Of a stretch of 35,123 bases of DNA, positions 1,799-25,566 are shown piece after piece. The stretch covers positions 1 to 35,123 of the forward strand of contig JAEOTS010000037.1 in assembly GCA_016839745.1 (NCBI GenBank), written 5' to 3'. Positions within the stretch are counted from its first letter, which is position 1, and each line of letters starts with the position of its first letter. The stretch comes from Promethearchaeota archaeon (GTDB taxonomy: Archaea; Asgardarchaeota; Lokiarchaeia; Sigyniarchaeales; SOKP01). Both the position numbers and the translations under genes were made by a program. The notes beneath the pieces were generated by a model that ran no database searches, had not been told where the DNA came from, and saw nothing but the letters and a program-made list of their open reading frames with translations.

Positions 1799-3001
1799 AT
1801 GAGCCTTGGTTCTGATTATTTTGATGTGTGCATTGTTGGTGCTAGTATTGCGGGCAATTATTTGGCGTTTTTATTATCTAACTCAAATCTAAAAATTGCG
1901 GTTCTCGAAGACCATTCAGAAATTGGCCTACCCTTTCAGTGTGCTGGAATCATTTCCCAAAAATTAACCCAATTAATTGAACTACCAAAAGATATTATAC
2001 TTAATCGGGTCAAAACCGCGAAAATCGTCAGCTCAACTGGTAAATATATAAAACTTTCAGGGGACGAACACCCTTATATCATCGATAGAATTGCTCTCGA
2101 TCGTTTGTACTACCATAGGGTCGAAAATAATAGAAATATCACTTATTATCTAGGTGAAAAGTATAAATCATTTGAATACCGCAGCGATAACGATAAAGAA
2201 TACGTACTTATTGAAACATCAAAGCGAAATATCCAAACTAGGATGCTCATTGGCTGTGACGGTCCTCTATCCTCAGTAGGCAAACAATTGAATGTGAAAA
2301 ATAACGTACTTTACGCTTCCCAAATTAGAATTAAGGCAGATTTTGACGAAGACGAAGCAGCTATGTACTTTGACCCACGATGGAAGCAGTTGTTTGGATG
2401 GATTGTGCCCGAAGGTAATCGCATCTTTCGTATTGGTATCGCTGCTAGTAAAAATGTGAATAATTGTTTCAAGCGCTACATAGAAAAATTGGCCATCGAT
2501 ATAGATAACAAAATAGACCAGCAGGGAGGGATTATTCCTTACGGAATTATGAATAAAATCTCTTTTGATAATATTATGTTATTAGGAGACTCAGCTTGTC
2601 AAGTTAAGGCAACAACGGGGGGAGGTATTATCATGCTGCTGACCGCTGCGAAGTACGCTTCCAATTGCGTCAATCTCTGCTTTAAAAATGAAGATTTTTC
2701 AAAAGAATTCATTAAAAAACATTATGAAAAGCCTTGCTCGACAACAATTGGTAGAGAATTGAAGCTTCATTACTTCATTCGACTTATTTTAGAGAAGTTT
2801 AAGGCTAAAGATTTTGAAACCTTCTTTACAATAATAAAAGAGAATAGAATTGAGCATTTAATAACTTTATACGGAGACATGGATTTTCCAAAAGCATTAA
2901 TAATTAAACTACTACGAAAACGAACTGTGTTAAATTTTATACTAAAATTTCTTGTAAGAAATCCAACAATAATCTTTAAAATCTTAAAATTATTTTTCTA
3001 A
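1799..3001 (+). CDS. Geranylgeranyl reductase family FAD-dependent oxidoreductase (archaeal lipid DGGGPL reductase-like)
   Basis: DVCIVGASIAG FAD motif, IGLPFQCAG, GCDG, FGWIVP and LLGDSACQVKATTGGGI. Confidence 0.85.
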   Translation: MSLGSDYFDVCIVGASIAGNYLAFLLSNSNLKIAVLEDHSEIGLPFQCAGIISQKLTQLIELPKDIILNRVKTAKIVSSTGKYIKLSGDEHPYIIDRIALDRLYYHRVENNRNITYYLGEKYKSFEYRSDNDKEYVLIETSKRNIQTRMLIGCDGPLSSVGKQLNVKNNVLYASQIRIKADFDEDEAAMYFDPRWKQLFGWIVPEGNRIFRIGIAASKNVNNCFKRYIEKLAIDIDNKIDQQGGIIPYGIMNKISFDNIMLLGDSACQVKATTGGGIIMLLTAAKYASNCVNLCFKNEDFSKEFIKKHYEKPCSTTIGRELKLHYFIRLILEKFKAKDFETFFTIIKENRIEHLITLYGDMDFPKALIIKLLRKRTVLNFILKFLVRNPTIIFKILKLFF

Positions 3002-4734: not shown

Positions 4735-6450
4735 TTAAAATAATAATCTCGCTATAAATGAAAACCCACTTTGTGGTGTGGACATGGTAACTATAAGAAA
4801 GGTCAATAATAGCGCATTTATTATGGCTCCAACAATAATATTTCCCGTTTTTCTGTAGGCTACTATAGAAATCCCTGAAGTTAAAGTAAACATTAGTATT
4901 GAAATAGGAATAAAGGTTCCAAAGTAAAACAAGCTTCTCATGAGAACGGCGACCAGTAACAAATAAACCATGAAATATAAAAGTGGATAAATAGTGCCTA
5001 AAATGAGTACTTTAAAATTATTTTTGATGGAATCGGTGAATTTGTTTTGAATTATCACTTGAGTCAACAGATTCAGAATTAGAATTACAAAAAAACTAAT
5101 AACGAAGTAAATAGGTATCGTCCAAATTTTAGTTATCGAAGGAACAAATCCTAGATAGTTTAAACCAATTGATGCATACACAATTAAGTAAAGCATAATT
5201 GCTAAAACTAACCCTAATAGTAATTGTCTAAGAAAAGCATTTCTTCCCTTAAATGGCTCTATTAGTATCTTTTTGAAAGATAAACTGGTTTTCTTTCCTA
5301 TTCTCCAGAGTAAAATCATCAATCCAAAGGCTTGACCAAATAATAAAGTTACTACAAAAGCAGCGATTGCTAATGGCAATATTAGTAATAGGGGTATAAA
5401 TATAATTACGCCGGGAATACCGAGCACGATTGGATATAATATCGCTTTCATCGAAATACTTTTTATAGACATATCAGGCGTGTCGATGGTATAATATTGA
5501 AGTTCCTTATCCCTATCGCTTTTTGCTTTTAGAATTAATTTAGACAAAGGATCGATGGTTAAAAAGAAAAATCCAATCCCTCCAATCACTTGTATCAATA
5601 AAATTAACCCTCTTATTTTCACATAGTAAGTCTCATCTACGACGTCAATATCAAAGGAATTTATGGCCCAGTCTCTTGCTTCACGAATAAAATCCTCGTC
5701 CCAGGCAACTGTGAGGTGATTACTGTTATCATCTAAATAAATCATAGAAGCGTTTCCTTGTTGAAACGATCCGTACAATTTGTTTGTATCTACATTCGAA
5801 ACCGGGATTCCGACTCTAACTGCTAAACTTGCTTTAAGGTATGGTAGCTTAGCAACTTCGTCGAACAACGCTTGAATCATGAGCACATTTAATGGCTCAG
5901 CCATTGTACCAGTTCTAAGGCTGGAATTTAACCCAGTGCCAATTCCTATAAAACACTTAAATGATAGATCATCTTGAATAAGATATTGTCCTAATCCACC
6001 CATACTATACCCAATATAACCCAAGGCGTTCATGTCTATATCACCCCTAAGACTAAGTTCCTCTTTAATCGCAATTATATCTTTTGTTTTATTATCTGGT
6101 TCTACCATAGTGCTTTGTCCATGTCCTCTGAAATCGAATGGTACGGTAACAAATCCTGCTGCTGCTAACTCTAACGCGTACCCTTTTAACATTTCTTTGT
6201 TGACCATAACCCCATGTCCAATTATAATAGCTGGTTTGTTAAGTCCACCACTTACCGGTTCAAAAATGTTATAAGAAATAGTGACGCCATCACTCGTCTC
6301 AGTTGATAATCCATAAGTACTTTTTACGCTAAGGGGTGTTATAAAAATGAAAACCGTTCCAAGCGTAAAAATAGCGAGAAAAATGCATATAAATACGATT
6401 CTTTTTTTTGTTAGATTTAATGTATTCATAGTTCTATATTTAAATTCCAA
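4735..6450 (-). CDS. Membrane-anchored alpha/beta hydrolase with C-terminal multi-TM domain
   Basis: N-terminal TM, IIGHG, FDFRGHGQS and GYSMGG nucleophile elbow, then about 8 TM helices. Alternative start ATG 6429. Confidence 0.85.
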   Translation of the reverse strand: MEFKYRTMNTLNLTKKRIVFICIFLAIFTLGTVFIFITPLSVKSTYGLSTETSDGVTISYNIFEPVSGGLNKPAIIIGHGVMVNKEMLKGYALELAAAGFVTVPFDFRGHGQSTMVEPDNKTKDIIAIKEELSLRGDIDMNALGYIGYSMGGLGQYLIQDDLSFKCFIGIGTGLNSSLRTGTMAEPLNVLMIQALFDEVAKLPYLKASLAVRVGIPVSNVDTNKLYGSFQQGNASMIYLDDNSNHLTVAWDEDFIREARDWAINSFDIDVVDETYYVKIRGLILLIQVIGGIGFFFLTIDPLSKLILKAKSDRDKELQYYTIDTPDMSIKSISMKAILYPIVLGIPGVIIFIPLLLILPLAIAAFVVTLLFGQAFGLMILLWRIGKKTSLSFKKILIEPFKGRNAFLRQLLLGLVLAIMLYLIVYASIGLNYLGFVPSITKIWTIPIYFVISFFVILILNLLTQVIIQNKFTDSIKNNFKVLILGTIYPLLYFMVYLLLVAVLMRSLFYFGTFIPISILMFTLTSGISIVAYRKTGNIIVGAIINALLLTFLIVTMSTPQSGFSFIARLLF

Positions 6451-6615
6451 ATTATATAAAAACTCTTTTTTATCACATTAATATTCTAGAAGTTTCTTGC
6501 TAATCTTTGTTTTAATCTAGTAAATTCCACGTAGAATCCTCAATAAATTATTAATGAAATGTTTTTATCCTTCAGATAACTTCTTGACATAATAAAATAC
6601 TTATATTGATAGAAA

Positions 6616-7926
6616 ATGTCGACTGAAGAAAAAGTTAGAAATCGATGGATTGTAGTAATAGGAGCAATATTAATTCAATTGGCTTTAGGGACGATTTATT
6701 CCTGGGGAACCATGACGGTATTTGTAAGTCCATATTTGAATTTAACTATGAATTTAGATCCAATCATCGTTAGAGAAGTTACGGTGTATATTTTCGGAGT
6801 TGGATTATTATCCTTTGCAATTACGATGATTTTTGCGGGTAAACTACAACAGAAGTACGGTCCTAAAAAAATTGCGATTTTGGGAGGGATATTAATTGGA
6901 ATCGGCTTAATTTTATCCGCATTTATGACTACTTTTATAGGCCTTTTAATTACTTATGGAATTATCTTTGGAGCAGGTATTGGGTTTGGTTATGTGTGTC
7001 CAATCGCTTCAGCGGGTAAATGGTTTCCAGATAAAAAAGGATTTATTAATGGAATTGCTGTTGCAGGGTTTGGTGCTGGTGCTTTCGTTTTTAATTACAT
7101 AATACAAGCATTAGCTAATCCAACAGGGTTATCAGACAAAGCTCCAAATTTTGTTGATGTAATTTCGCCGAATATTCCATTAATGTTCGTAATTTTAGGA
7201 ATTATTTATCTCGTTCTTGTTATAGGAGGAGCAATGACACTGAGCAATCCACCCGAGGGATGGAAACCTGATGGATGGACACCTCCTCCTCCTTCGGAAG
7301 AAAGTGGAATATCGGGTCTGGAGTTCGAACGAGCTAAAACAGTAAAATTACCCCAATTTTGGATGCTTTGGACGGCTTTCGCATTAAGTGCTATGTCCGG
7401 TTTAATGGTTATAGGATCATTTTCTGCATTTGCCAAAACCTATGCAGCCCCTGATGTATTCTTATATGTAATTGGTACCAGTGATTTCGTGTTAATTGGA
7501 AGTTTAGCAGCTCTATTCAACGGATTAGGCAGAATAGTTTGGGGGAAATTAGCAGATATGATAACCTATAAAAAATCTATGTTGTTAATGTTCACAACTC
7601 AAGCAATCCTTATGTTTATCTACTTCACAACAAATGGTAGCGAAATATATTTCTTAATCATAACTTGTGCAATCTTCTTCTGTTTTGGAGGTAATTTCAG
7701 CTTATTTCCAACGGCCACAGCTGATCTATTTGGATCAAAAAATTTAGGTCCAAACTATGGAATTGTTTTTACGGCTTACGGCGTAGCAGGATTTATTGGT
7801 GCTGTTGGTGTAAACTTATTTGTTAGCATTTTTGGAAGTTATCTGATACTATTTATAGTAATGGGAACTATGTCTGTCGGTTCAGCAATTTTAACTTTTA
7901 TAATAAAACCACCAAAACAAAGATAA
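6616..7926 (+). CDS. MFS transporter, oxalate:formate antiporter (OFA) family
   Basis: About 12 TM; LALGTIYSW, KWFPDKKGFINGIAVAGFG, NGLGRIVWGKLAD and FGSKNLGPNYG. Confidence 0.9.
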   Translation: MSTEEKVRNRWIVVIGAILIQLALGTIYSWGTMTVFVSPYLNLTMNLDPIIVREVTVYIFGVGLLSFAITMIFAGKLQQKYGPKKIAILGGILIGIGLILSAFMTTFIGLLITYGIIFGAGIGFGYVCPIASAGKWFPDKKGFINGIAVAGFGAGAFVFNYIIQALANPTGLSDKAPNFVDVISPNIPLMFVILGIIYLVLVIGGAMTLSNPPEGWKPDGWTPPPPSEESGISGLEFERAKTVKLPQFWMLWTAFALSAMSGLMVIGSFSAFAKTYAAPDVFLYVIGTSDFVLIGSLAALFNGLGRIVWGKLADMITYKKSMLLMFTTQAILMFIYFTTNGSEIYFLIITCAIFFCFGGNFSLFPTATADLFGSKNLGPNYGIVFTAYGVAGFIGAVGVNLFVSIFGSYLILFIVMGTMSVGSAILTFIIKPPKQR

Positions 7927-19133: not shown

Positions 19134-19799
19134 TTAATAGATAAACGGTATTAGTTTTTTGCTTTTCTTTTTGTAATCAGCGAATTCTTCTCCAAAAGCT
19201 TCGTAAAGAAGTCTTTCTTCTTCATCGATTCTCATTTTAAACACTATAAAATAGAAAATCGAAATGAATAAAAGCGTTATTATACTTCTAAAGACCAAAC
19301 CAAAACCAATAACAGCTATTAATGCCCCAGAATACATCGGATTCCGGATATATTTGTAAACTCCTTCGGTGTAAAGTTTATGGTCTTTCTCCGTTATTAA
19401 TTCACCTGAACCGAACTTACCAAGCTGTACTCGTCCTACAATAACAAAGATACCTGCTGAGAGATAAATGACAAATCCAATATAACTCACAATAAGGCTA
19501 TCCCAGAATGGTAGAATCGATGATATTAGTAATTTATTCTCATAAAAAGCAGCAATTAATAAGAATGGTGCTAAGAAAAACATCAATAATATTAAGAAAT
19601 CATATATTTTTGAAGGATTTCTCTCTTTCGTTAGAGGACGTATCAATGAATCTGCAAGAGCAATTATGTAATTCGTTAACAAATATAAAACATAAATGGG
19701 TGCTGTATAAATTTCTGGAACAAGTAGAATATAGAATATGTTTGGATAAGTAATCTGAAGTATTAAAAATAGTAAGATTTTCTTAATAATATCTTTCAT
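19134..19799 (-). CDS. Isoprenylcysteine carboxyl methyltransferase (ICMT/PEMT) family membrane protein
   Basis: HKLYTEGVYKYIRNPMYSG, RIDEEE...FGEEFADY and KLIPFIY. ATG 19799 has an AAGGAG upstream and is preferred to 19823. Confidence 0.85.
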   Translation of the reverse strand: MKDIIKKILLFLILQITYPNIFYILLVPEIYTAPIYVLYLLTNYIIALADSLIRPLTKERNPSKIYDFLILLMFFLAPFLLIAAFYENKLLISSILPFWDSLIVSYIGFVIYLSAGIFVIVGRVQLGKFGSGELITEKDHKLYTEGVYKYIRNPMYSGALIAVIGFGLVFRSIITLLFISIFYFIVFKMRIDEEERLLYEAFGEEFADYKKKSKKLIPFIY

Positions 19800-19902
19800 C
19801 TTTATTATCTCCTTATAATACAATTATAGTTTACTGATCTTTGTAGAGAAACTAAAGAATAAAAAATATGTTAAAAATAAAAATTACTATAAATTAGGTT
19901 TC

Positions 19903-20670
19903 TTACTCTTCCTCGACAGATTCCTTGCCTAACAAGCGCATAACGGAATCTGCAAGTTTATTTTGACTACGACTCATAATTCCTTTAATTTTCCCTTCTT
20001 TTCCGAGAACGCGGAGCATGATACCATCCCAAACTGAGGATGGATTCCCCTTTTCTTTCTTGAATTTATCTCTGTGAATCTCTACGCTAATATTATCGTA
20101 ATTTTTCGAAGCGTCCGAACACTTAAAACATAAAATACATTTATCTATGTCTACGGCTATGTCATTACCATCACGGGACATAGCATCTACAGAACACTCT
20201 TCAGTAAACGCGTCAATTACTTTAGTATCTTTTTCAGTGCAGTCGAATTTAATTGAACCATCTACTACCTTTCGTACTTTTTGACCATCTTCTAAAATGC
20301 GAACTTCTTCATCGAATTCAGCAAGAGAACCATTCTCTACTAATAATATCTTACTTTCTCCGTTGATTATTAATTCTAGCGTATATCCCGGACATATCCA
20401 GCTGCAACTGCCACACCATATGCATTTATCAACATCTACGACAATTTTTTTATCTGATTCAACTCTCATCTCTTCTGGAGTTCCTATAGCAGTTTTTTTT
20501 AATGGTTCATCGTAAATAGAAATTGTTACAGGACAAACTCTATGGCAAAAACCACACTCAACGCATTTACTTTCATCGTATTTTAATATACTCTCATGGG
20601 AAAGCATCTTATAGACATAATGAGTAATATTTTCGTCAATTTCGATCGCTTTCTTAGCTGGTAACGACAT
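19903..20670 (-). CDS. 4Fe-4S polyferredoxin-like protein (FwdF/MvhB-like)
   Basis: CVECGFCHRVCP, CIWCGSCSWICP and a degenerate CILCFKC; last gene of the hdrA cluster. Confidence 0.8.
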   Translation of the reverse strand: MSLPAKKAIEIDENITHYVYKMLSHESILKYDESKCVECGFCHRVCPVTISIYDEPLKKTAIGTPEEMRVESDKKIVVDVDKCIWCGSCSWICPGYTLELIINGESKILLVENGSLAEFDEEVRILEDGQKVRKVVDGSIKFDCTEKDTKVIDAFTEECSVDAMSRDGNDIAVDIDKCILCFKCSDASKNYDNISVEIHRDKFKKEKGNPSSVWDGIMLRVLGKEGKIKGIMSRSQNKLADSVMRLLGKESVEEE

Positions 20671-20760
20671 AATCCTTCACTTTTATTTTTCCTTCTTTAA
20701 TTTAAAATATCTTTTTGTATTTTTAAGAATTTATATCAAAACTTATTGACCAAAGTAGAA

Positions 20761-21900
20761 TTAAGTTTTTTCTAATTCCATTTGGCTAATCGCTTTACCA
20801 GACCTGAACGGTATATCATCTATGCTTTCACCGGCGCTATAATCAAACTTTTCCTTAAAGGAGTCGTTTAACGATTGGAAGTATAGTGATAGTGGAAGAT
20901 GTTGTGGACAGTTATTATCGCAATTTCCACATTCGACACAGCGGTCTGCGACATGGGCAATTCTTGTTAATTGATAGGATTCTTTATTGATGATCTTTTC
21001 TTTCCTCTTCTTCATTAGAATACAATCAACACAGTAACATACTGGACATCCTCTGATGCACATGTTGCACATAGTGCATGCTTGGAACCTCTCCAATTTT
21101 TCTTCCTGAGAAAGCTTGTCCCATTCTTCTAAATCCTTTGCTCTCTTTGCTATAGCTGCATCCTTAATGTTTTTAAGGACTTCGGATTGCTTAGTTTTCA
21201 TATCTTCAGGTAAAGGTTTTTTGTTGATCTTTGATTTTTCTACGAGATCTTCGCCTTTATCTGAATACACTTTAAGCACGATTTCGTCCGAATCAATAGG
21301 TAATACAAGATCACTAACGCTAATATCAGCTACAACAGGAACCTTCCTATTACAACGCGAACAGTTCTCTGCTATATCTAATCCAACCTCCTTGGTACTA
21401 CCATCTTCAAATTTAAGAATTAATCCTTTATCGCCAACTTTTTCTTTAACAACTTTAGTTAAATCAAGCCCTTCTACTTTCTTCAATTCGCGAGCGGCGT
21501 TTATTATCATCCCTCTATCCTCAAAGCCAACAACAAAGAGATTATCCATGTTAATCTGTCTAATCTTTGCTAACTCAATAATTCCACGCGTATCACAAGG
21601 ACGAGCGATAACTCCTACTTTTTCGTTTTTAGCCCCATCAACTGATTTGTGTAAGAATTTCGCAGCAGTATCCGTTCTCGCATACCCATATGCAATTAAA
21701 TTCGTTAAAGGAAAAGTAACAAAATCTTCTGGTTTTTCAACGAGTACTGGAGATACGGTAAACCTATCTACAGCCCCGGACTTCTTATCTACTTTTAACT
21801 TTGCTCCAATAATTTTGTCCACGATTTTTTCTTGCAAGAGCGTAGCTAATAGCTTAGGAAAATCCTCAATTTTAATTAAATATTCATCTAACGCATCCAT
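20761..21900 (-). CDS. FdhB/FrhB-family (F420 hydrogenase/dehydrogenase beta subunit-like) Fe-S flavoprotein, 379 aa
   Basis: KVGVIARPCD, ENCSRC, CTMCNMCIRGCPVCYC and RCVECGNCDNNCP. Start placed at ATG 21900 (MDALDEY) because the upstream extension is low-complexity and overlaps the SECIS. Confidence 0.85.
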   Translation of the reverse strand: MDALDEYLIKIEDFPKLLATLLQEKIVDKIIGAKLKVDKKSGAVDRFTVSPVLVEKPEDFVTFPLTNLIAYGYARTDTAAKFLHKSVDGAKNEKVGVIARPCDTRGIIELAKIRQINMDNLFVVGFEDRGMIINAARELKKVEGLDLTKVVKEKVGDKGLILKFEDGSTKEVGLDIAENCSRCNRKVPVVADISVSDLVLPIDSDEIVLKVYSDKGEDLVEKSKINKKPLPEDMKTKQSEVLKNIKDAAIAKRAKDLEEWDKLSQEEKLERFQACTMCNMCIRGCPVCYCVDCILMKKRKEKIINKESYQLTRIAHVADRCVECGNCDNNCPQHLPLSLYFQSLNDSFKEKFDYSAGESIDDIPFRSGKAISQMELEKT

Positions 21901-21988
21901 GTTATTCCAACTCAAAATAGTAAATTTATTTTCTTGTTTTTGATTTAATTTTTTACAACTTTTTCTTTTATTTTTTAATAATTTATTT

Positions 21989-22063
21989 AATGTGTTATAT
22001 GGTGCTCCCATTTCTTCAACTGAGCTCTCATTTTTTTAACTCAGCTTCATTAGCTAACACATT
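21989..22063 (-). promoter_or_regulatory. Eukaryote-like SECIS element (selenocysteine insertion sequence) 3' of mvhD
   Basis: Minus-strand RNA: AAUGUGUUA-GCUA-AUGAA-GCUGAGUU-AAAAAAAUGAG-AGCUCAGU-UGAA-GAAAUGGGAGCACCAUA-UAACACAUU. It has a 9-bp helix I, an AUGA (22050-22047)/UGA (22018-22016) core, an 8-bp helix II and an A-run at the 5' side of the apical loop. Confidence 0.88.
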
Positions 22064-22497
22064 TATTTTTTAGAGGAGTCTTTATTTTTTTTATTTAACG
22101 GGCTCGGTCCAAGTTTCCGTATTTCTTCATCAAAAGCAGTTGCTACTTCCCGATATTTCGAACCTTCTGCTGAACTACAGTATTCCATCTTTAATCTTTT
22201 TGGGTCAAGTCCAATGGTTTTAACTACTTCTTTTAGATATGCAATTGATCTATGGGCAAAATAGTTGCCTTTTTCATAATCGCATTCTCCAGGATATCAT
22301 CCAACAATAATTATACCGTCAGCGCCTCTCCCAAACCCTCTCATAATTACATCCGCACCAACCCTTCCTGTGCATGGAACTAAAACGGTTCTTAAAGATG
22401 TGGGGTATTGAGCTCTAATAGTTCCCGCCATATCAGCTGCACCATAGCCTCATTTTAAACATAAAAAAGATAGAATTTTAATATCGTTGTTACTCAT
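22063..22497 (-). CDS. mvhD: MvhD/VhuD hydrogenase delta ([2Fe-2S]) subunit; selenoprotein with 2 Sec (U16, U67), 144 aa
   Basis: Manual translation: MSNNDIKILSFLCLKUGYGAADMAGTIRAQYPTSLRTVLVPCTGRV...GADGIIIVGUYPGECDYEKGN...RKLGPSPLNKKNKDSSKK*. TGA at 22450-22452 and 22297-22299 replace the Cys of the CxxC and GCxxGxC motifs. GAGGT RBS upstream; TAA stop. Confidence 0.93.
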
Positions 22498-22510
22498 TTC
22501 ATTTACCTCT

Positions 22511-24472
22511 TTAATCCTCAATTGGCAATAATTCGTCAATATAGCTTACATATTGAACATCTTTATAATGCGCTAATTCTATCGCTTTAGAAGGACAAAT
22601 TGCAGTGCATATTCCACAACCTCTGCAACTTATTACATCTACAACAATCGTTCCTTCATCATTAATAGAAATCGCTTTGTATGGACAAGCTTCAATACAT
22701 TTATAGCATTTTGCACATCTTTCGTCTATTGGTTGGGCACGTATTAATTCAATAACATACTCTTCTCGTCCCATTGGAATGCCTGCTGATGATGCTGCTC
22801 CCTTAGCTTGACTTACTGTTAGTTCAATTGATTTTTGACCTTGACATGAACCGGCTAAGTATACGCCTGGGACCTTCGTCTTGATTGGTTCTAAACGTGG
22901 ATGAACTTCTTTTAGGAAACCATCTGGTGATTTCTCAATATTCATTATAGAAGCAATTTCGTTTGTACCCCGCGATGGTAATGATGCCGATGACAAAACA
23001 ACCATATCAACTTCTTGTTTTACGATTGTATCAGTCCCAACTGGTTCAAATTCAACGGTAAGATTCTTTGTTAGCGGATCTTCTTCTATTTTTCCAATCA
23101 TCCCTTTAACAAAAAGAATTCCAGCATCCCTAGCTCTTCTATAATATTCTTCATACATCTTCCCAGCACATCTCATATCTATATAACATACCGTAATTTC
23201 TGAATCGGGATATTCTGAGATTATAAGTTTGGAATTCTTTACGGATAAATTACAACACACGACACTACAATATTCATTCTTTTTTAAATCTCTTGAACCT
23301 ACGCAGTTTATGAATAATATTTTCTTTGGACGTTTTCTATCTGAGGGGCGTACCAAATGACCGAACGTAGGGCCATTTGGAGCAAGAATCCTTTCTAATT
23401 GGATCTGTGTAATAACATTATCATATTTTCCGTACCCATAATCGTCTTCTTGATATAAGTCCCATCCTGTTGCTACAATTATTGTTCCCGCTTCAAGCTC
23501 TATAATTTCGTCTTGTTGACTAAAGTCAATTGCCTCCAAATCACAAGATTCGACACATGCAAAACATTCTACACACGATTCTCTTACAATATCATAAACT
23601 GCCGGAACTGCTTGAGCAAATGCGATATCGATACACTTACGAGCTGAAAGATTTTCATCGAAATAATTAGGAACATATATCGGGCATACTTCCGTACATG
23701 CTCCACAACCAGTACATTCGCTTTCAATGACAAATCGAGCTTTTCTTTTTACTTGGACTCTAAAGTTACCTATATATCCTTCGACTTTTTCTACTTCACT
23801 ATAGGTAAGCATTTCAATATTTGGATGACGATCAGCTTCAAGCATCTTTGGTCCGAGAATTCATATCGAACAATCGTCTGTGGGGAATGTTCGATCTAAT
23901 TGAGACATACGACCACCGATTGTTGTCTTCTTTTCAACTAAATACACTTTATATCCTGCATCTCCCAAATCAATTGCAGCACTTAAACCAGCAATTCCTC
24001 CGCCAATAACCAAACATGTAGGTTTTACATCAACTGTTTTTGTAGGTATCTCTTCTAAAAATTGCGATCTTGAAATCCCTGCTTTCACCAATTCTATTGC
24101 TTTAAGTGTAGCATCATCTCTTACTTCCATTGCTTGATGAACATAACTACAATGTTCTCTAATGTTTACAAATTCCAAATATCTCTGTGGCAATCCTGCT
24201 TCATTTAAAATAGCATGAAATACTGGTTCATGTGTTATTGGAGTTCAAGCAGCTAAGATAATTCTGTCAAAGCTTTTTTCCTCAATTTGTTCTTTAATAA
24301 ATTCAGCGCCTCCAGACGTACACAGATTTAAATACTCATAAGCGTAAACATCATCAAGTTTATCAATTTCTTCTACAATTTTAGGCACATCTAAAATACC
24401 CCCAATATTAACTCCTCATCTACATATAAATGCTCCGATTTTGTGTTTACTATTGGTCTGTTCTTCAGACAA
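22511..24472 (-). CDS. hdrA: Heterodisulfide reductase subunit A; selenoprotein with 3 Sec (U19, U76, U204), 653 aa
   Basis: One continuous frame from TTG 24472 (AGGTGG RBS) to TAA 22511, interrupted only by TGA at 24416-24418 (IGAFICRUGVNIGG), 24245-24247 (RIILAAUTP) and 23861-23863 (TFPTDDCSIUILGPKM). Contains VIGGGIAG FAD motif, CVGSRD...YCSVVCC and several CxxCxxCxxxC ferredoxin motifs. Joins track ORFs 23861..24193 and 22511..23845. Confidence 0.95.
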
Positions 24473-24759
24473 ATTTTCCACCTTTTATCTTTGTATCCTC
24501 CTAATTATAAATGTTTCAACTTATAACGATTTGAATTTATTGTATTTGATTCAATAAATATGATCATGCAAATGGTTCTTATTATTAAAATTCAATTATT
24601 ATTAGTTTTAAAACGAATATTTTTGATTTTAAGTCTTTCCTCATTGCTTTCAAAGTTGAAAAAATCGCACCAGATATAAATAGAATAAAGATTATAACTC
24701 ATGATTCAAACATAACACTTAAGTAAAAATTAAAAAGATCTTTTGATGGGTGAATATTC

Positions 24760-25566
24760 ATGTTAGAATCTCAAGAATCAAAAAAAAAAACAAAATACCA
24801 AATTACTTCAATTCAAAGAAAAATACTAATTGGTAAAATATATCCTATCCTTCTATTGGGTTCTATAGTCTGGTTATGTGGGGAGTACTTGTTTAGCTTT
24901 CTTTTCTCAGATTTGGATTTAACAGGACGAAATTTATTGGTCTATATTATAGTCGTAATCGTAGAAGTGGCCTTATTTATCTTATTTTTCTTTGCCTCTA
25001 AATCTAATAAAACACTATTGAGCATCTCACTCTTTATAATACTTTGCTTTCTATTAGGGATTTTAAGCCTTCCTATAGTAATTTTTACCGAATTTGTATC
25101 CCAAGTTCATATGTTTGTCAGTCTATCCGTCGGTGCAAGTCTCATTATAAACTTTATAACTCTCATTTTAAGAGATAAGTATTTCTCTAAAGGATATATT
25201 TGGGCGCATCTTTTATTATTCTTAGTTGGATGTGCGATAATAGAACTCGTTTTCATCGTTATTTTCAACATCCATAACTTTTTAATTACAGTACCTCTCT
25301 CACTTGCGTATATCTTGGTTATTTCCTTAATTTTAATTTTTTATGGCGTTCGAACCGTTTCAAAAGTTGAAAACGAGAATTGGATATATGCATTTTTTAA
25401 AATTCTTGGAATTTTATTAGTAGCTCTTGTATTAGCTGTCGTTGTGGTAGTTATCGTGCTTTTAATAATTGCTTGCGCAATTGCTACTGATGGCGCTTTT
25501 GATTTATCAGGTCTAGGAGGCGGTGGAGGAGGTAAGATAAAAAGGAAGAAACGACAGAAAATTTAA
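24760..25566 (+). CDS. Multi-pass (about 7 TM) membrane protein, weak resemblance to Bax inhibitor-1/YccA fold
   Basis: About 7 hydrophobic helices; Gly-rich then basic C-terminal tail (GLGGGGGGKIKRKKRQKI). Family assignment is tentative. Confidence 0.65.
   Translation: MLESQESKKKTKYQITSIQRKILIGKIYPILLLGSIVWLCGEYLFSFLFSDLDLTGRNLLVYIIVVIVEVALFILFFFASKSNKTLLSISLFIILCFLLGILSLPIVIFTEFVSQVHMFVSLSVGASLIINFITLILRDKYFSKGYIWAHLLLFLVGCAIIELVFIVIFNIHNFLITVPLSLAYILVISLILIFYGVRTVSKVENENWIYAFFKILGILLVALVLAVVVVVIVLLIIACAIATDGAFDLSGLGGGGGGKIKRKKRQKI

Follow-up and report, generated by a model that had tools for sequence, protein, structure and literature searches.

One lokiSECIS element and five in-frame UGA codons in an hdrA-mvhD gene pair of a promethearchaeotal contig

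How can five UGA codons distributed over two adjacent genes be decoded as selenocysteine (Sec) if only one Sec insertion sequence (SECIS) element accompanies them? The question is raised by hdrA and mvhD (vhuD) on contig JAEOTS010000037.1 of the Promethearchaeota archaeon assembly GCA_016839745.1 (3.5 Mb, 32% G+C, 89% complete), of which the stretch analysed here, positions 1 to 35,123, is referred to as the window. Both genes, and all coordinates of the cluster given below, are on the minus strand. The closest relatives of this hdrA are found in metagenome-assembled genomes (MAGs) labelled Promethearchaeota or Promethearchaeia, the latter being the present name of Lokiarchaeota. An original prediction, made from the letters of the window, proposed long-range recoding across cistrons, and each of the in-silico tests applied to that proposal supports it: very probably, five UGAs in two cistrons of one mRNA rely on a single SECIS that lies downstream of mvhD. 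The arrangement itself is already known as the shared lokiSECIS of HdrA-VhuD pairs, described for Lokiarchaeota in 2016, and its recognition at this locus is a correct rediscovery.

Five UGA codons and the element that follows them

The hdrA gene (22511..24472; 653 codons) extends from TTG 24472 to TAA 22513-22511 and encodes a protein with Pfam FAD and 4Fe-4S domains. Its start was set by alignment to 29 orthologues, most of which have a stop behind an upstream GTG. Three in-frame TGAs, at 24418-24416, 24247-24245 and 23863-23861, represent codons 19, 76 and 204. The mvhD gene (22063..22497; 144 codons; Pfam FlpD, 142.7 bits) extends from ATG 22497 to TAA 22065-22063 and includes two further TGAs, at 22452-22450 and 22299-22297, as codons 16 and 67. 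Between the two genes lie only the 13 nt that the original prediction had reported (22498..22510, AGAGGUAAAUGAA), within which a Shine-Dalgarno-like GAGGU is found.

Evidence that these codons specify Sec comes from structural homologues and from two sets of loci, the first consisting of 30 orthologous loci (29 and that of the window) and the second of 80 loci from named Promethearchaeota MAGs, both drawn from one species-representative collection and overlapping. In the alignment of HdrA with PDB 9sfi_A (687 bits), codons 19 and 76 correspond to Cys and codon 204 to X, the canonical Sec site, and both mvhD UGA sites are Cys in the MvhD chain of PDB 9sw2_D. Sec is found at codons 19 and 204 of hdrA in all 30 orthologous loci, codon 76 varies between Sec (8 loci) and Cys (22), and two more Cys columns are represented by TGA in single genomes; in mvhD, codons 16 and 67 both encode Sec in each of 28 orthologues. 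At the level of alignment, the correspondence of these sites to Cys or Sec, together with the interchange of the two residues, shows all five UGAs to be Sec codons. Longer tblastn matches in six loci, which might have been taken for insertions in hdrA, turned out to be upstream ferredoxin genes.

The use of stop codons fits this picture. As originally predicted, all four genes of the cluster end in TAA while TGA serves as a genuine stop at 829 and 4225 of the window, with more stops close behind each, so that the genetic code has not been altered globally. Among 73 loci, hdrA ends in TAA in 45 and in TAG in 28 but never in TGA, the outcome anticipated where UGA is recoded along the whole gene by a SECIS downstream of it.

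The element that could account for such recoding begins 12 nt past the mvhD stop. Its core (22050..22016) comprises AUGA (22050-22047), a helix in which 22046-22038 pairs with 22026-22018 (AGCUGAGUU/AGCUCAGUU) at nine of nine positions, an A-rich apical loop of 11 nt (22037-22027, AAAAAAAUGAG), and GA (22017-22016). This is the anatomy of lokiSECIS type I, in which AUGA lies directly 5' of the stem and GA or AA directly 3' of it, while an A-run opens the loop and (A)G closes it; the 9-bp stem, the 11-nt loop and the position near the end of a coding sequence conform to it as well. The structure extends beyond the core to 22061..21991 through a lower helix in which UGUGUU (22061-22056) pairs with AACACA (21996-21991), and it includes a 3' mini-hairpin, AUGG-N5-CCAU (22011-21999), both of these additions being seen in the 30 orthologues. 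The minimum free energy of the fold is -20.2 kcal/mol (z -3.3), and an RNAalifold consensus built from the orthologues only, with three paralogous SECIS left out, includes compensatory changes within the 9-bp helix. In the orthologues, the distance from stop to SECIS is 3-21 nt, except at one locus where the nearest TAA or TAG lies beyond AUGA.

At least 13 lokiSECIS in the same genome share this geometry exactly, each just downstream of a UGA-containing open reading frame (ORF). Across these 13, 94% of stem cells are paired, compared with about 42% in slid controls, and all nine pairs vary on both sides; since pairing was a requirement of the pattern by which the copies were selected, it is their conserved loops and their positions that count as independent support.

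Related elements were seen at other loci. At the paralogous locus on contig C83, the mvhD reading frame extends into the AUGA of the SECIS. In one MAG (L067:4620-4700), UUGA replaces the AUGA core while stem, loop and flanks are intact, an element missed by the covariance search with default filters. In three related MAGs (L127-L129, ~6000-6800, minus strand), a second strong lokiSECIS is found on the opposite strand ~1.3 kb past the hdrA-mvhD SECIS and is presumably part of a convergent gene for a selenoprotein.

The distance from the first hdrA UGA to AUGA is 2368 nt, in agreement with the ~2.4 kb of the original prediction. Situated 12 nt past the mvhD stop and serving all five UGAs, the element would have to act over 0.25-2.4 kb and across both a stop and a restart of translation. 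In the proposed mechanism, hdrA and mvhD would be translated from one mRNA, which probably also carries the two genes that follow, and a single eukaryote-like kink-turn SECIS would help to decode all five UGAs as Sec. The size of the gap and the absence of T-runs suggest co-transcription of hdrA and mvhD, and we infer from the arrangement that the SECIS acts on the upstream cistron hdrA. An extremely improbable alternative is that the two genes have separate transcripts, or that no SECIS is involved at the hdrA UGAs, where ribosomes either read through or terminate, the apparent sharing then being an artefact of proximity. The gap leaves no space for a terminator and a promoter, 28 orthologues keep it similarly short (13-17 nt), and the C83 paralogue has, in its place, a 26-nt overlap of hdrA with mvhD; the avoidance of TGA as the hdrA stop and the conservation of the Sec positions likewise speak against this alternative.

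The search for a second element

If hdrA had a SECIS of its own, action across cistrons would not be needed. The covariance scan of the cluster that the original prediction had suggested was carried out with a model, R1, built from the 13 SECIS of the genome and run with filters off. It returned a single match in the window, of 44.9 bits at 22004-22062 (minus strand), while the rest of the cluster reached at most 12 bits; the best matches inside hdrA, of 11.8 bits and 10.9 bits, had E values greater than 2. An 18-bit match at 2658-2724 (minus strand), antisense to a 400-amino-acid ORF, was rejected as noise.

Searches by pattern gave a similar result. A kink-turn descriptor ([AG]UGA, a stem, any apical part of up to 40 nt, [GA]A) recovered only the known element when a stem of at least 6 bp was required, and relaxed versions gave match counts at or below those expected from shuffled sequence. 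One relaxed match upstream of hdrA (24644-24608) was not retained, as it has a weak stem with a mismatch, is unconserved in orthologues and lies upstream of the TATA-like block described below; relaxed-pattern counts in the region upstream of hdrA were below shuffle expectation. A descriptor of the Methanococcus GAA_A type had no match over 24800-19800 (minus strand; shuffle mean 0.26). No SECIS family of Rfam matched at the gathering score, nor at E<=10 over 19700-24900, although Rfam is uninformative here because even the genuine lokiSECIS goes unrecognised.

A test that depends on no model is provided by synonymous sites, added because R1 scores the type-II SECIS of selD in this genome at only ~12-13 bits. 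Across the 30 orthologues, the profile of variation at synonymous sites stays level in hdrA (0.86-1.16) and in mvhD, departing from this only in the first few hdrA codons, in the final codons ahead of the mvhD ribosome-binding site and in the C-terminal tail of mvhD, where the alignment is poor. As an embedded conserved RNA element would appear as a dip, the flat profile indicates that the coding sequences contain none, and the lack of a drop around any of the five UGAs extends this to a bacterial-type SECIS 3' of each. Thus, comparison of the orthologues argues against a hidden SECIS of divergent type. Model, patterns, Rfam and synonymous sites together detected no second SECIS within or upstream of hdrA.

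The type-II-like elements that motivated this test follow tandem selD genes on contig C158, each gene with one in-frame TGA and each with its element directly behind it (L017:1008-1070, 2505-2566); they consist of AAUGA, a 7-bp stem, an apical part of 18-19 nt and GA.

The arrangement is conserved within the genome and beyond it. The assembly contains at least five hdrA genes of the Sec type (contigs C20, C79, C83, C64, C137; loci L002-L005), each with 2-4 UGAs; four of them have an assembled mvhD and SECIS, and seven Cys-type paralogues are present as well. The other hdrA-mvhD loci, three complete pairs and a fourth on a short contig that retains only the 3' end of hdrA, have one SECIS each, after mvhD. 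Scanned with filters off, the 29 orthologous loci also have one each, and 78 of the 80 named Promethearchaeota loci have one downstream of mvhD, the 79th being the UUGA-core variant and the 80th truncated. The survey of SECIS number that the original prediction had called for therefore gives a single element in every complete locus examined.

Another type of conserved element is found where hdrA begins. The UUG start codon (24472-24470) overlaps an inverted repeat capable of forming a hairpin, GUCUG-AAGAA-CAGAC (24470-24456), so that the start codon and repeat together occupy 24456..24472 and the G of UUG is the first base of the repeat. A pattern search recovered GUCUG-N5-CAGAC in 74 of 80 orthologous loci, and one more locus has a longer loop. 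The start codon, a conserved weak UUG, is TTG in 55 loci, ATG in 13 and GTG in 6. Loops lengthened by 1 nt, which put the 3' arm in another reading frame, leave both arms intact, and this places the constraint on the nucleic acid, and the synonymous-site ratio across the first hdrA codons is 0.12-0.5. RNAalifold gave no consensus structure for the translation-initiation region because a 5-bp hairpin is too small.

Could this hairpin, or the conserved 5' leader in which it lies, be a second cis-element that serves hdrA, leaving the SECIS to serve mvhD only? Its conservation as nucleotides irrespective of frame would suit such a role, as would its distribution in this genome, where the motif occurs three times, always at an hdrA start (the window, L002/C20 and L003/C79), with a G-U variant at a fourth, and is present in four of five Sec-type hdrA paralogues compared with none of seven of the Cys type. 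Nevertheless, the explanation is very unlikely. The hairpin has no AUGA/GA kink-turn, comprises only 5 bp and is located upstream of the UGAs; it is missing from the Sec-type hdrA on C83, which also has one SECIS only, and from other selenoprotein genes. For these reasons, the lack of a kink-turn and the uneven occurrence, it is not regarded as a SECIS. It is furthermore limited to one family (35 of 40 genomes, with occurrence at chance level elsewhere in the phylum), whereas the shared SECIS has been reported across Asgard archaea. Nor does the hairpin region appear to reach the SECIS by long-range pairing, since the mean energy of duplexes formed by the 5' region of hdrA with that of the SECIS is -17.1 kcal/mol, compared with -18.3 kcal/mol for shuffled controls.

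Service of both cistrons by the one SECIS thus stays the preferred explanation, and the observations that weigh against it are of several kinds. A conserved hairpin is present at the hdrA start. Given the low score of R1 for the type-II selD elements, a divergent SECIS type could hide at the noise level of the model. As the orthologous loci are related to one another and the two sets of loci overlap, the counts obtained from them are not independent. Finally, a tRNA-Sec was not found by ARAGORN or Rfam in this 89%-complete assembly, the searches yielding tRNA-Gly only.

Other components of the Sec machinery are represented in the assembly. SepSecS scores 411 bits, above its cut-off, and shares its contig (C150) with an EFSec-like gene that, at 228.6 bits, falls slightly below the cut-off for bacterial SelB; the two TGA-containing selD genes score above cut-off, and the match to PSTK is weak, as it is in the Methanocaldococcus jannaschii control. 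ARAGORN lists only 11 tRNAs in the entire assembly, the tRNA genes of which are either poorly assembled or intron-containing.

The extent of the transcript and the timing of translation

Whether the SECIS lies in a true 3' untranslated region (UTR) depends on how far the transcript extends beyond it. Downstream of mvhD, the minus-strand series continues with an FrhB/FdhB-like gene (20761..21900; Pfam FrhB_FdhB_C) and a polyferredoxin-like gene of 255 amino acids (19903..20670; Pfam 4Fe-4S domains), the last in a probable transcription unit of four genes. The start of the FrhB-like gene is placed at ATG 21900 (MDALDEYLIKIE), 115 nt past the GA of the SECIS, where the orthologues share the start MDAMAEYLIKIE. 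The start of the mechanically called ORF, ATG 22011, lies inside the SECIS mini-hairpin and was rejected because most orthologues carry in-frame stops after the corresponding ATG.

The original prediction noted that no oligo-U run follows the SECIS, and on the coding strand there is indeed no run of five or more T outside coding sequence from the hdrA leader as far as 19883, the only such run after the SECIS being inside a coding sequence. The first terminator-like signal outside coding sequence downstream of the hdrA promoter is a cluster of three T5-T6 runs (19861..19883) directly after the polyferredoxin gene. Termination at oligo-T is established for archaea, and this cluster looks like an archaeal terminator for the four-gene unit. 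Because no T-run comes earlier, the SECIS is probably operon-internal, as the suggestion of an intercistronic location had implied, and its inclusion in a four-gene transcript is somewhat favoured by the distribution of these signals.

A possible but less favoured alternative places the SECIS in a true 3' UTR, with a transcript that ends soon afterwards and an FrhB-like gene expressed from its own promoter in the 115-nt spacer. The spacer is A/T-rich, poorly conserved and contains TATA-like stretches, a run of five or more T is present in 15 of the 30 orthologous spacers, and a conserved Shine-Dalgarno-like GAGUUGGA precedes the start at 21900. In the window, though, the stretch from the SECIS to 19883 lacks such a run outside coding sequence and the first T-run cluster comes only after the fourth gene, and the order hdrA-mvhD-frhB-like is kept in nearly all loci compared.

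At the other end of the unit, an A/T-rich block (24560..24603) with more than 90% column identity in the 30 orthologous loci lies ~90-130 nt upstream of the hdrA start and includes a TATA-like TTTTAATAATA at ~24590-24580. It is probably the hdrA promoter and perhaps a regulator site too. Between this block and the start are two Shine-Dalgarno-like motifs (24479..24502) conserved in the orthologue alignment, AGGAGG at 24502-24497 and AAGGUG at 24484-24479; no start codon is suitably spaced from the first of these.

The original prediction went further in proposing that coupling of transcription and translation makes the operon selenium-gated. It is true that ribosomes following close behind the polymerase would arrive at the codon 19 UGA well ahead of any transcription of the SECIS. 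Gating by selenium is nevertheless speculation, and the step is unsupported as stated. The delay would be independent of selenium, and dependence on selenium holds for any selenoprotein mRNA. The start-codon hairpin offers one putative answer to the coupling problem. As a translational gate or a regulator-binding site on the weak UUG start, an unlikely function to assign to it, the hairpin would limit or delay initiation on hdrA, and ribosomes would then reach codon 19 only after the SECIS has been transcribed and loaded.

Comparison with known Sec-recoding systems

In the Lokiarchaeota described by Mariotti et al. 2016 (PMC4989117), all HdrA-VhuD pairs have one lokiSECIS, which lies downstream of VhuD with none elsewhere nearby, and one element was proposed to serve up to six UGAs over ~2 kb. 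The same sharing was reported across Asgard MAGs by Huang et al. 2024 (PMC11227280). The locus in the window resembles these pairs in having the two genes on one strand, with hdrA upstream of vhuD, a tiny gap between them and a single SECIS after vhuD; in an HdrA with several Sec, the canonical site near residue 200 among them, and a VhuD with two Sec; in an hdrA stop codon that is UAA or UAG; and in an element composed of AUGA, a 9-bp stem, an 11-nt A-rich loop and GA that follows UGAs spread over ~2 kb. Nothing essential differs from the 2016 description.

Reporters in M. maripaludis, which were tested up to ~680 nt, revealed no strict limit on the distance between UGA and SECIS (PMC9622424). 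For Lokiarchaeota, it was proposed that the VhuD SECIS replaced a degenerated hdrA SECIS, and no SBP2 was detected (PMC4989117). If the preferred reading is true, one SECIS acting over more than 2 kb and on two cistrons would be the longest-range, and the only cross-cistron, Sec recoding known, with a bearing on the archaeal origin of the eukaryotic 3'-UTR SECIS system, a significance already set out by Mariotti et al. 2016. To this, the window adds a clean and well delimited example, with evidence from synonymous sites that speaks against a concealed second element, a lower helix and 3' mini-hairpin that extend the SECIS, a probable four-gene unit, a conserved hairpin at the start codon and a corrected annotation of the FrhB-like start.

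A related paradigm is provided by vhuD of Methanococcales and Methanopyrus, in which two UGAs of one cistron are served by one archaeal SECIS in the 3' UTR (PMC4989117). In both systems a 3' SECIS serves more than one UGA from a distance, and the protein family and the positions of Sec in VhuD are shared; the methanococcal SECIS is of the GAA_A type, a motif not found at the locus in the window.

Eukaryotic SECIS elements, such as those of the SelenoP mRNA, have in common with this lokiSECIS an AUGA/GA core, an A-rich apical loop, a 3' location and action that spans kilobases and covers several UGAs. The lokiSECIS differs from them in its shorter helix II and in its setting in a prokaryotic polycistronic mRNA, and with no Rfam SECIS match at E<=10 it works like a eukaryotic SECIS yet is no member of that group by the Rfam models. 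The case of SelenoP, moreover, involves two SECIS elements and stays within one ORF.

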